The notes beneath the pieces were generated by a model. The model was not told the DNA's origin. It ran no database searches and was given only the letters and a program-made list of their open reading frames with translations. DNA of 64,000 nt from Escherichia coli (GTDB lineage: Bacteria; Pseudomonadota; Gammaproteobacteria; Enterobacterales; Enterobacteriaceae). Below are positions 47,007 to 53,375 of the stretch, in pieces. The DNA is taken from NCBI RefSeq assembly GCF_024298765.1, contig NZ_CP101210.1; one strand, 5' to 3'. How positions within the stretch are numbered: the stretch's first letter is position 1; each line of letters starts with the position of its first letter. The position numbers were made by a program, and so were the translations under genes.

Positions 47007-47645
47007 TTAACGTGGTCGAATCCCCTCAATAATTATCCGCTGCACGTTTTCAACCGTTTGATTGAAAAACACCTCATCGCGCAACGTCGCGCCTGTCACC
47101 GCCTCCACCTGAGGGGCAAAATCGGCGTAATGTTGAGTGGAAGCCCAAATCATAAAAATCAAATGCTGCGGGTCAATCGGCGCGAGTTTGCCGCTTTTGA
47201 CCCAACCGGCAATCAGCGCCGATTTCTCATCAATTAATGCCTTCAAATCGCCCGTCAGTTCATCCATTAACAGCGGTGCACCTGCCAGCATCTCCATACA
47301 GAACAGGCGCGAAGCCTGCGGATAATCGCGTGAGACTTCCAGCTTCAGACGGATGTACTCTTTGATCGCCGCCAGCGGGGCGAAATCTTCACGAAACGCT
47401 TTTAACGGTGCCAGCCAGATATCGAGAATCTGCCGCAGTACGGCTATATACAGCGCCTCTTTTGACGGAAAGTAATACAGCAGATTGGTTTTTGAAACAC
47501 CCGCCAACTCCGCGATCTGCTCCAGCCTTGTGCCGTGAAAACCGAATTGTGAAAAAGTGTCCAGTGCTGCGCTAAGAATCGCTTTTTTCTTCGCGCTTAC
47601 TGCGCGCGAACGCTTACCCGTTGTTTTCACTGCGCCTTGCGTCAT
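47007..47645 (-). CDS. rutR: TetR-family regulator RutR
   Basis: ORF 47007..47672 (-); start MTQGAVKTTGKRSRAVSAKKKAILSAALDTFSQFGFHGTRLEQIAELAGVSKTNLLYYF... (TetR HTH); 212 aa. Confidence 0.92.
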   Translation of the reverse strand: MTQGAVKTTGKRSRAVSAKKKAILSAALDTFSQFGFHGTRLEQIAELAGVSKTNLLYYFPSKEALYIAVLRQILDIWLAPLKAFREDFAPLAAIKEYIRLKLEVSRDYPQASRLFCMEMLAGAPLLMDELTGDLKALIDEKSALIAGWVKSGKLAPIDPQHLIFMIWASTQHYADFAPQVEAVTGATLRDEVFFNQTVENVQRIIIEGIRPR

Positions 47646-47831
47646 GCGCTCTCCCCTCTTGTTGATTGGCAACAGGATAGCAAAACCCCCGCCCGGCCTC
47701 GACCTTCTGCACTCTCATCGCGCACGAATGCATGTTTTATGTGCAACTGTTTTGACCGTTTAGTCCACTTTTTTTCAGGCATTTTAGACAACTTAACATT
47801 AACACATTAATAACATTCACTTTTTAAAAAC

Positions 47832-47847
47832 TGGCATCCGCTTTGCA
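47832..47847 (+). promoter_or_regulatory. Sigma54 (-24/-12) promoter of the rut operon
   Basis: TGGCATCCGCTTTGCA matches TGGCAC-N5-TTGCA with the GG and GC elements at the correct spacing, about 30 bp upstream of rutA. Confidence 0.7.
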
Positions 47848-47875
47848 AACAAGCCATTACGCGGCTGAAAAGGAT

Positions 47876-49716
<1,841 letters not shown>

Positions 49717-49727
49717 GGAGTTTAACG

Positions 49728-50114
49728 ATGCCAAAATCCGTAATTATTCCTGCTGGCAGCAGCGCACCGCTGGCCCCCTTCGTTCCCGGCACGCTGGCTG
49801 ATGGCGTGGTGTATGTCTCCGGTACGCTGGCTTTTGATCAACATAACAACGTGCTGTTTGCCGATGACCCAAAGGCGCAAACCCGCCACGTTCTGGAAAC
49901 CATCCGCAAGGTCATCGAGACGGCGGGTGGCACGATGGCGGATGTGACCTTCAACAGCATCTTTATTACCGACTGGAAAAATTACGCCGCGATTAACGAA
50001 ATCTACGCCGAGTTTTTCCCGGGTGACAAACCGGCGCGATTCTGCATTCAGTGCGGACTGGTAAAACCTGACGCGCTGGTGGAAATCGCCACAATTGCGC
50101 ATATCGCCAAGTGA
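49728..50114 (+). CDS. rutC: RutC (RidA/YjgF family)
   Basis: 128 aa [37 protein letters not shown].... Confidence 0.92.
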
Positions 50115-50121
50115 GGCCGCG

Positions 50122-50934
50122 ATGAAACTTTCACTCTCACCTCCCCCTTATGCTGATGCGCCCGTAGTGGTGTTGATTTCGGGTCTTGGCGGTAGCGGCA
50201 GTTACTGGTTACCGCAACTGGCGGTGCTGGATCAGGAGTATCAGGTAGTCTGTTACGACCAGCGCGGCACCGGCAATAATCCCGACACGCTGGCAGAAGA
50301 TTACAGTATCGCCCAGATGGCAGCGGAACTGCATCAGGCGCTGGTAGCCGCAGGGATTGAGCGTTACGCGGTGGTCGGCCATGCGCTCGGTGCGCTGGTG
50401 GGAATGCAGCTGGCGCTGGATTATCCCGCGTCGGTAACTGTGCTGGTCAGCGTTAACGGCTGGCTACGAATAAACGCCCATACGCGCCGCTGTTTTCAGG
50501 TTCGCGAACAGTTACTACATAGCGGCGGCGCGCAGGCATGGGTGGAAGCGCAGCCGTTGTTCCTCTATCCCGCCGACTGGATGGCGGCCCGCGCACCTCG
50601 CCTTGAGGCAGAAGACGCGCTGGCACTGGCGCATTTTCAAGGCAAAAATAATTTACTGCGTCGACTTAACGCCCTCAAACGCGCTGACTTTAGTCACCAT
50701 GCGGATCGTATCCGCTGCCCGGTGCAAATCATCTGCGCCAGTGATGATCTGCTGGTGCCAACAGCATGTTCCAGTGAACTTCATGCCGCCCTGCCCGATA
50801 GCCAGAAAATGGTGATGCGCTATGGCGGACACGCCTGCAACGTGACCGATCCCGAAACGTTTAATGCTCTGTTACTCAACGGGCTTGCCAGCCTGTTACA
50901 TCACCGTGAAGCCGCCTGTAAGGAATTGCTATGA
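50122..50934 (+). CDS. rutD: RutD (alpha/beta hydrolase)
   Basis: ATG at 50122 gives [29 protein letters not shown]... with GHALGA nucleophile elbow. Confidence 0.9.
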
Positions 50935-51521
50935 ACGAAGCCATTAGCCCAGGTGCGCTTAGCACCTTGTTCACCGATGCCCGCACTCACAACGGCTGGC
51001 GGGAGACACCCGTCAGCGATGAGACGTTACGGGAGATTTATGCCCTGATGAAATGGGGGCCGACATCAGCTAACTGTTCTCCGGCACGGATCGTGTTTAT
51101 CCGCACTGCAGAAGGAAAAGAACGTCTGCGCCCGGCGCTTTCCAGCGGCAATCTGCAAAAAACCCTGACCGCGCCCGTCACCGCTATCGTCGCCTGGGAC
51201 AGTGAATTTTATGAACGGTTACCACTACTGTTTCCCCACGGTGATGCCCGCAGTTGGTTTACCTCCAGCCCACAACTTGCCGAAGAAACAGCGTTTCGCA
51301 ACAGTTCCATGCAGGCGGCTTATCTGATCGTCGCCTGCCGCTCGCTGGGGCTGGATACCGGCCCGATGTCGGGCTTTGACCGTCAACACGTGGACGACGC
51401 CTTTTTTACGGGCAGCACGCTGAAGAGCAATCTGCTGATTAATATTGGCTATGGCGATAGCAGCAAGCTTTATGCGCGCCTGCCACGTCTGTCCTTTGAG
51501 GAAACCTGCGGGCTGATGTAA
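50931..51521 (+). CDS. rutE: RutE (nitroreductase-like)
   Basis: 196 aa [51 protein letters not shown].... Confidence 0.92.
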
Positions 51522-51531
51522 GGAGCAAACT

Positions 51532-52026
51532 ATGAACATTGTCGATCAACAAACTTTTCGCGATGCGATGTCCTGCATGGGCGCGGCGGTCAATATCATC
51601 ACCACGGACGGTCCAGCCGGGCGCGCCGGGTTCACCGCCAGCGCCGTCTGCAGCGTGACCGATACGCCGCCCACATTACTGGTGTGCCTGAATCGTGGGG
51701 CGTCCGTCTGGCCGGTATTCAATGAAAATCGAACGCTGTGTGTAAATACACTTAGCGCCGGACAGGAGCCGCTTTCAAACCTTTTTGGCGGCAAAACGCC
51801 CATGGAACACCGCTTTGCCGCCGCCCGCTGGCAGACTGGTGTGACCGGATGCCTGCAACTGGAAGAAGCACTGGTTTCGTTTGACTGCCGTATCAGCCAG
51901 GTGGTGAGCGTCGGCACCCACGACATTCTGTTTTGCGCCATCGAAGCGATTCATCGTCACGCCACCCCCTACGGGCTGGTGTGGTTTGATCGCAGTTATC
52001 ACGCGCTGATGCGCCCTGCTTGTTAA
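51532..52026 (+). CDS. rutF: Flavin reductase RutF
   Basis: 164 aa [56 protein letters not shown].... Confidence 0.92.
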
Positions 52027-52046
52027 CCTCCTTAAGGAGACAGCTG

Positions 52047-53375
52047 ATGGCAATGTTCGGTTTTCCTCACTGGCAGTTAAAATCGACCTCTACAGAGAGC
52101 GGCGTGGTCGCGCCGGATGAACGATTGCCGTTTGCTCAGACGGCAGTAATGGGCGTTCAACACGCGGTGGCGATGTTTGGCGCGACGGTGTTAATGCCGA
52201 TTCTGATGGGGCTGGATCCCAATCTTTCCATTTTTATGTCGGGGATCGGCACGTTACTGTTTTTCTTTATTACCGGCGGGCGCGTGCCCAGTTATCTCGG
52301 TTCCAGCGCGGCTTTTGTCGGCGTGGTGATTGCCGCAACGGGCTTTAATGGTCAGGGAATTAATCCGAATATCAGCATCGCGCTGGGCGGGATTATCGCC
52401 TGTGGGCTGGTTTATACCGTCATTGGCCTGGTGGTGATGAAAATCGGTACGCGCTGGATTGAACGACTAATGCCGCCGGTTGTGACGGGTGCGGTAGTGA
52501 TGGCGATTGGCCTGAACTTAGCGCCTATCGCAGTGAAAAATGTATCGGCTTCGGCCTTTGATAGCTGGATGGCGGTAATGACGGTGCTGTGTATTGGGCT
52601 GGTGGCCGTATTTACCCGTGGCATGATCCAGCGATTATTGATTCTCGTAGGATTAATTGTCGCCTGTCTGCTGTATGGCGTGATGACCAACGTTTTAGGG
52701 CTGGGAAAAGCCGTCGATTTTACTCTCGTCAGCCATGCTGCCTGGTTCGGTCTGCCACATTTTTCCACTCCTGCTTTTAATGGTCAGGCAATGATGCTGA
52801 TTGCGCCCGTGGCGGTGATTCTGGTGGCGGAAAACTTAGGTCATCTCAAGGCGGTCGCCGGGATGACCGGACGCAATATGGACCCGTATATGGGGCGGGC
52901 ATTCGTCGGTGATGGTCTGGCGACGATGCTTTCTGGCTCTGTCGGCGGTAGCGGCGTAACCACCTACGCCGAGAATATCGGTGTGATGGCCGTGACAAAA
53001 GTCTACTCGACGCTGGTGTTTGTTGCCGCTGCCGTCATCGCCATGCTGTTGGGCTTTTCGCCGAAATTTGGCGCGCTGATTCATACCATTCCAGCACCGG
53101 TGATTGGTGGTGCATCAATTGTTGTGTTCGGGCTGATTGCCGTCGCAGGCGCAAGGATCTGGGTACAAAACCGTGTCGATTTAAGCCAGAACGGTAATTT
53201 GATTATGGTCGCAGTAACCTTAGTGCTGGGCGCGGGTGATTTTGCTCTCACGCTGGGCGGTTTTACGTTGGGAGGGATCGGTACAGCCACCTTTGGCGCG
53301 ATTTTACTCAATACGTTGTTAAGCAGAAGGTTGGTTGACGTTCCACCGCCAGAAGTTGTTCATCAGGAGCCATAA
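52047..53375 (+). CDS. rutG: Pyrimidine permease RutG (NCS2 family)
   Basis: Internal ATG of ORF 52020..53375 gives MAMFGFPHWQLKSTSTESGVVAPDERLPFAQTAVMGVQHAVAMFGATVLMP...; 442 aa. Confidence 0.92.
   Translation: MAMFGFPHWQLKSTSTESGVVAPDERLPFAQTAVMGVQHAVAMFGATVLMPILMGLDPNLSIFMSGIGTLLFFFITGGRVPSYLGSSAAFVGVVIAATGFNGQGINPNISIALGGIIACGLVYTVIGLVVMKIGTRWIERLMPPVVTGAVVMAIGLNLAPIAVKNVSASAFDSWMAVMTVLCIGLVAVFTRGMIQRLLILVGLIVACLLYGVMTNVLGLGKAVDFTLVSHAAWFGLPHFSTPAFNGQAMMLIAPVAVILVAENLGHLKAVAGMTGRNMDPYMGRAFVGDGLATMLSGSVGGSGVTTYAENIGVMAVTKVYSTLVFVAAAVIAMLLGFSPKFGALIHTIPAPVIGGASIVVFGLIAVAGARIWVQNRVDLSQNGNLIMVAVTLVLGAGDFALTLGGFTLGGIGTATFGAILLNTLLSRRLVDVPPPEVVHQEP

Follow-up and report, generated by a model that had tools for sequence, protein, structure and literature searches.

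In glnAp2, the classic NtrC-dependent sigma54 promoter at glnA, a tandem pair of NtrC sites situated over 100 bp upstream of a -24/-12 promoter acts by looping, and IHF sites around -52 are typical of many sigma54 promoters. The divergent control region between rutR and rutA shares with glnAp2 the -24/-12 promoter and the two tandem upstream NtrC or NtrC-like sites, but differs from it in having weaker sites (10/14 and 9/14 matches) that lie 21 bp apart, a box for a TetR-family repressor between enhancer and promoter, and a divergent sigma70 gene. This box belongs to the same family of 16-bp semi-palindromes as the RutR box of carAB P1, with TTGACCATTTGGTCCA at carA (13/14) compared to TTGACCGTTTAGTCCA at rut (11/14), and the two boxes are reported to have similar nanomolar affinities and to be both sensitive to uracil. 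At carP1, the box is situated a long way upstream, at -184.5, and the effect of RutR is positive, whereas at rut it lies in the rutR start region and the effect is negative.

The rutR-rutA control region itself is already known. It is a well-studied, ordinary switch, which activates the breakdown of pyrimidines under nitrogen scarcity in the presence of uracil, and which combines a documented nitrogen-regulated sigma54 promoter with a pathway-specific TetR-family repressor. Here we describe it in a stretch of E. coli DNA of 64,000 nucleotides (the window), where it occupies the interval 47673-47875 between rutR on the minus strand and rutA on the plus strand. With a probability of roughly 90%, the standard reading applies: an NtrC/sigma54-driven rutA promoter, with RutR repressing rutR and damping rut. 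The gain for annotation is that the coordinates of the RutR box are fixed, the NtrC-like sites are added and a shorter RutA start (47933) is supported. The architecture is conserved across Enterobacterales, while the transcription start of rutA is still only a predicted one; the leader block and the IHF-like site are small leads.

The features discussed below are the following (window coordinates; distances are given from the predicted rutA start):

47007..47645, minus strand: rutR coding sequence from the list of open reading frames, a TetR-family repressor of 212 aa, transcribed away from rutA
47708-47724, no strand assigned: NtrC-like site 1, TGCACTCTCATCGCGCA, 10/14 match to TGCACCAnnnTGGTGCA, centre at about -142
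47729-47745, no strand assigned: NtrC-like site 2, TGCATGTTTTATGTGCA, 9/14 match, centre at about -121, 21 bp from site 1
47752-47767, no strand assigned: RutR box, TTGACCGTTTAGTCCA, reverse complement of the published K-12 site
47773-47798, no strand assigned: variable AT-rich spacer, in which variation within E. coli is concentrated
47800-47812, minus strand: IHF-like site, TATTAATGTGTTA, one mismatch to WATCAANNNNTTR, centre at about -52
47832-47847, plus strand: sigma54 promoter, TGGCATCCGCTTTGCA, identical to the K-12 motif bound in ChIP-seq
47858, plus strand: predicted rutA transcription start according to a 19-bp rule, not experimentally mapped
47858..47900, plus strand: leader block, ACGCGGCTGAAAAGGATATGCAGGATGCAGCGCCCCGTCTGA, in which GCAGGATGC (47878-47886) is the core and another GGA is found at 47872-47874
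47933..53375, plus strand: rutABCDEFG operon, with the rutA start as annotated by PGAP (MKIGVF...)

The locus in E. coli

The translation of rutR begins with MTQGAVKTTGKR, and the gene is annotated as rutR in both Nissle 1917 and K-12. All seven rut genes are intact and, as the preliminary description had put it, tightly packed, with intergenic gaps of -1, 11, 7, -4, 10, and 20 nt. Their products are 95-100% identical to the Nissle 1917 counterparts, RutE being the lowest (187 of 196 residues). RutD (50122-50934) has 270 aa here and 266 aa in Nissle 1917; owing to a short C-terminal extension, there is a 4-nt overlap between the rutD stop and the rutE start. Inside rutR, a peak of a published K-12 CsrA CLIP-seq data set (peak_110, U00096.3 1074528-1074704) maps to approximately 47183-47359 of the window, on the minus strand.

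The same locus with the same divergent gene order is found in E. coli K-12 (b1012-b1013 intergenic region). In MG1655, the NtrC-like sites, the RutR box, the IHF-like core, the -24/-12 elements, and the leader are base for base those of the window. The 15 substitutions that separate the two strains across the 301-nt region compared fall elsewhere: the AT-rich spacer (47773-47819) has 11 of them, the stretch separating the NtrC sites has two, and the rutR leader and the sequence immediately past the promoter have one each.

We searched a 351-nt query around the control region against 5426 complete E. coli genomes and obtained matches in 5421 of them, with five genomes showing none. The query is 100% identical to Nissle 1917, where the flanking genes are annotated as rutR and rutA; across the surrounding 16 kb, the window and Nissle 1917 are only 96.7-98.4% identical, and the window is therefore not from Nissle 1917 but from another strain. 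The 67-bp segment that holds the dyads and the box is at least 95% identical in all 5420 E. coli genomes, and the adjoining 67-bp spacer is 80-90% identical in 3175 of the 5420 and 60-80% identical in 44. The same pattern was seen when ten Escherichia alleles were aligned (Escherichia sp. E1V33 plus nine E. coli strains, among them K-12 and that of the window): the RutR box is invariant, NtrC-like site 1 nearly so, and variation lies at 47773-47798, with several distinct spacer alleles at 47791-47798 within E. coli. In one genome, NZ_AP045758.1 (strain 23CRST001), the query aligns over no more than its first 126 nt, ending near window position 47725, and this strain may have an interruption or a deletion of the control region in the stretch from one NtrC site to the other.

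Promoter, putative enhancer and operator

In the sigma54 promoter, the GG of the -24 element (47833-47834) and the GC of the -12 element (47845-47846) are 10 bp apart within the pattern TGGCAC-N5-TTGCW and face rutA, and the motif lies 85 nt upstream of the rutA ATG at 47933. The preliminary description had located TGGCATCCGCTTTGCA exactly, on the plus strand, and had called it textbook; as it differs from TGGCACNNNNNTTGCW in one base, having T in place of C behind TGGCA, it is very good, not strictly textbook. Upstream of rutA, sigma54 ChIP-seq in K-12 identified site OS10, whose motif is CTGGCATCCGCTTTGCA (PMC4591121), and genomic SELEX with the RpoN holoenzyme gave a peak in the rutA/rutR spacer (PMC8743547). 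An earlier microarray study had placed ycdM (rutA) among the sigma54-responsive genes, with an identical predicted promoter. The comparison with the published rutA promoter that had been proposed as a check thus returned the identical K-12 motif, from ChIP-seq and from genomic SELEX. The claim of a nitrogen-regulated sigma54 promoter for rut is supported as well, with TGGCATCCGCTTTGCA being the sigma54-bound K-12 motif and an NtrC peak lying in the region.

According to the rule of the ChIP-seq study, by which transcription starts 19 bp downstream of the motif centre (PMC4591121), rutA is predicted to start at 47858, which agrees with the published distance of 18 nt from the ATG annotated in K-12 (47876). 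No experimentally mapped rutA transcription start was found in the literature searched, and the status of the rutA promoter in EcoCyc as of 2015 was 'predicted' (PMC4591121). A second sigma54-like motif, TGGCAACAGGATAGCA, occurs on the plus strand at 47667-47682, in the rutR leader region and upstream of the NtrC sites. It has two mismatches, is also found in Escherichia sp. E1V33 and has variants in a few other genera; since matches at this stringency are fewer in the window than expected by chance, it is probably not a promoter.

The putative upstream enhancer consists of the two tandem NtrC-like sites (-142 and -121), whose position is conserved across genera. They were absent from the preliminary description and are the only matches to TGCAC-N7-GTGCA with at most one mismatch in the window. 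When compared with the 17-bp dyad TGCACCAnnnTGGTGCA, they match at only 10 and 9 of 14 positions, with the outer TGCA/GCA bases conserved. In nitrogen-starved K-12 cells, NtrC ChIP-seq detected a 94-fold peak at ycdMLKJIHG, that is rutABCDEFG (PMC4066584); its interval maps to the promoter side, approximately 65-100 bp from the assigned sites, and does not pinpoint them. The rut operon has been listed as NtrC-activated, and the rutA/rutR spacer was not listed at the 40% cut-off of an NtrC genomic SELEX, which recovered only seven known targets. The two dyads are given here as putative NtrC sites.

The RutR box is centred at about -98.5 from the predicted rutA start and lies 6 bp from NtrC-like site 2. 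TTGACCGTTTAGTCCA is a 16-bp match to TTGACCAnnTGGTCAA with three mismatches (11/14), in which the key positions, A at 4 and T at 13, are kept. The left half-site matches better than the right one (6/7 versus 5/7), as had been noticed before; the RutR-type site itself, proposed at about 47744-47759, is indeed the published operator but lies 8 nt further to the right. Comparison with that operator, another of the proposed checks, showed TTGACCGTTTAGTCCA to be the reverse complement of TGGACTAAACGGTCAA, the ChIP-chip site at rutA (11/14; PMC2475637).

For the K-12 site, published measurements gave a Kd of 8.6 nM for RutR on the rutA-rutR fragment, with half-inhibition by uracil at ~9 nM, and, by ITC on a 50-mer carrying the box, a Kd of 44 nM with one dimer per DNA. 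The 50-mer of the published EMSA and ITC experiments contains the RutR box of the window. Four substitutions in the box (an operator-constitutive mutant) abolish the uracil-sensitive autoregulation of rutR. Published experiments, mostly on sequence identical to the window, have shown that sigma54, NtrC, and RutR bind in this region, that rutR needs the box for its autoregulation, and that RutR responds to uracil. In the literature, RutR is a repressor of both wings, rutR and rutA, and one paper speaks of an 'activation' of the rut operon by RutR. Of the effects documented for RutR at the box, that on rutR autoregulation is greater than that on rutA.

Conservation and the probable working of the switch

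We fetched 80 rutA loci from Enterobacterales genomes, which together with the window yielded 79 usable upstream regions from genera ranging from Escherichia to Rahnella, Serratia, and Yersinia. A divergent rutR is present upstream in 74 of the 80 loci that were fetched. All 79 regions have a perfect TGGCAY-N5-TTGCW ahead of rutA and, upstream of this motif, a RutR-box-like site, in which positions 4=A and 13=T are likewise kept in 79/79. The order of the regulatory motifs is common to all 79, and their spacing varies little: the offset between NtrC-like sites 1 and 2 is 21 bp in 53/79, and that between site 2 and the RutR box is 23-24 bp in 70/79. Column by column, TGCAC..GCA, TGC..GTGCA, TTGACC..GTC, and TGGCA..TTGC are sharply conserved, with poorly conserved sequence between them, and the GTGCA of site 2 is invariant in the 78 unique sequences.

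In Erwinia, Winslowiella, Serratia, Yersinia, and some Pantoea and Rahnella, a second RutR-like box is found ~19 bp downstream of the first (loci L027, L031, L051, L061, L068, and L072 among them), for example TTTACCAAATGGTCTA followed by TAGACCAAATGCTCAA. The distance from box to promoter is 88-90 bp in these two-box loci and ~80 bp in Enterobacteriaceae, including E. coli, which have one box.

The IHF-like site lies in an AT-rich context between the NtrC and RutR sites and the sigma54 promoter. Its columns Y-A-A-N4-T-T-G/A-A-T-W are conserved across genera, with the Y at 47800 corresponding to R on the other strand, and at the position of the E. coli mismatch 53 of 78 sequences have the G of the consensus. 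With at most one mismatch, the site is present in 57/79 loci, in comparison with ~1.2% of composition-matched shuffles. The literature text searched makes no mention of IHF binding at 47800-47812.

Published work has the RutR box lying downstream of the start of rutR, whose promoter is upstream of the box. For this reason we place the rutR sigma70 promoter, which is probably located on the minus strand within 47773-47798, in the variable spacer, with TAAAAT (47785-47780) as a candidate -10 element; no strong sigma70-like promoter passed a consensus scan of 47600-47950. The candidate IHF site may overlap the rutR promoter.

In the standard reading, the sigma54 holoenzyme at the -24/-12 elements would not get beyond a closed complex before an ATP-dependent activator comes into play. 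Upon nitrogen limitation, NtrC-P would occupy the tandem sites, loop to the holoenzyme and open the complex, and the AT-rich spacer and the IHF-like site would probably aid the looping. A uracil-free RutR dimer on the box would repress rutR and dampen rut, and uracil would release it. Given the 6 bp between box and dyad 2 and the conservation of this offset, we infer that RutR might interfere sterically with NtrC, by blocking either the assembly of the NtrC oligomer or the loop.

Deletion of rutR caused no rise of rutA mRNA in exponential phase (published), and the repression of rutA by RutR is therefore seen only with NtrC active, or is modest. This result fits a two-key logic and also leaves room for a simpler scheme, in which the box serves essentially rutR autoregulation only and rutA is under the control of NtrC and sigma54 alone. 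The position of the box would suit this scheme, as the box follows the rutR start and, with its centre at -98.5, does not cover the -24/-12 elements, but the offset of 23-24 bp from NtrC-like site 2, which is kept in 70/79 loci, suggests a functional composite with the enhancer. In the same way, autoregulation is lost when the box is mutated and exponential-phase rutA mRNA was unchanged upon deletion or acetylation of RutR, but the latter null effect was measured while NtrC was inactive, and RutR is described in the literature as repressing both wings. Taken together, we consider control of rutR alone improbable and retain the standard reading, with RutR acting on both wings.

The main role of the sigma54 holoenzyme at 47832-47847 could also be to repress a sigma70 promoter overlapping the site, and not to transcribe rutA. 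A general model of such repressive promoters has been published, and the RpoN holoenzyme binds the site in vitro without NtrC; however, the scan of 47600-47950 revealed no sigma70-like promoter, nitrogen-starved cells have NtrC bound in the region, the operon has been counted among those activated by NtrC, and the sigma54 motif is conserved together with its enhancer sites and spacing in the 79 loci, which makes a mainly repressive role very improbable in comparison with the NtrC-activated promoter of the standard reading.

The motif scan for sigma54 and RutR that had been suggested as a check recovered both sites, with counts in the window that are not above chance. The sigma54 pattern with at most one mismatch has one match compared to 3.5 expected in shuffles, the RutR pattern with at most three mismatches has three compared to 2.85, and the NtrC pattern with at most one mismatch has two compared to 3.2. 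Motif enrichment in the window was consequently rejected as evidence, and function is argued here from context, published experiments, and conservation. What exceeds chance is the position and clustering of the sites between the divergent genes, their identity with K-12, and their conservation in 79/79 regions. That the matches are chance resemblances without any regulatory role, as the counts at or below shuffle expectation in the 64-kb window might suggest, is refuted by their identity with experimentally bound K-12 sites and by the conservation of sequence, order, and spacing in 79/79.

The rutA start and its leader

The K-12 record starts rutA at the ATG at 47876 (382 aa), while PGAP uses the ATG at 47933 (363 aa). 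The 19-codon K-12 extension is interrupted by stop codons in 36 of 78 relatives, including another E. coli. Since the extension is not conserved as protein, comparison of the sequences favours the shorter RutA, starting at 47933, as more likely, with a leader of ~75 nt.

This leader contains a conserved, GGA-rich block of ~40 nt overall, in which the core GC-A/G-GGA-N-GC is invariant and a second GGA lies 9 nt upstream. It is found in 61 of 79 Enterobacterales leaders, from Escherichia to Rahnella, in differing reading frames and whatever the frame, and is missing as a unit from the other 18. In 4409 E. coli genomes, it is present as a single copy with at least 99% identity, and a repeated element was rejected on account of the single copy per genome. 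A protein N-terminal extension or upstream ORF was likewise rejected, as the frames differ and stops occur in 36/78 relatives. Searches for a structured RNA in the rutA leader gave no Rfam match and a fold weaker than that of shuffles (z = +1.5), and RNAalifold on the block returned only two invariant pairs and no covariation.

The leader core, CAGGA(T/A/C)G, resembles the CsrB repeat, CAGGA(U/A/C)G, and for this reason a CsrA reading is possible. CsrA-bound mRNA leaders have at least two GGA motifs, as a rule in the loops of short hairpins, one of which overlaps the Shine-Dalgarno sequence. The rutA leader has two conserved GGA motifs 9 nt apart and a stem of only 2-4 bp, and neither GGA overlaps the rutA Shine-Dalgarno sequence. 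The supplements of the CsrA CLIP-seq study contain no peak at rutA and, for this locus, list only the peak inside rutR. Tentatively, and with a low probability, the block may be a primary-sequence platform for CsrA or another RNA-binding regulator. If so, control by NtrC and RutR would be complemented by a post-transcriptional one that links pyrimidine catabolism to carbon status.

Elsewhere in the window, the 17-mer TGCACACACCGGGGGGA occurs in three plus-strand copies within 1.7 kb (32750-32766, 32931-32947, and 34422-34438), which indicates some repeated element bearing no relation to the rut locus.
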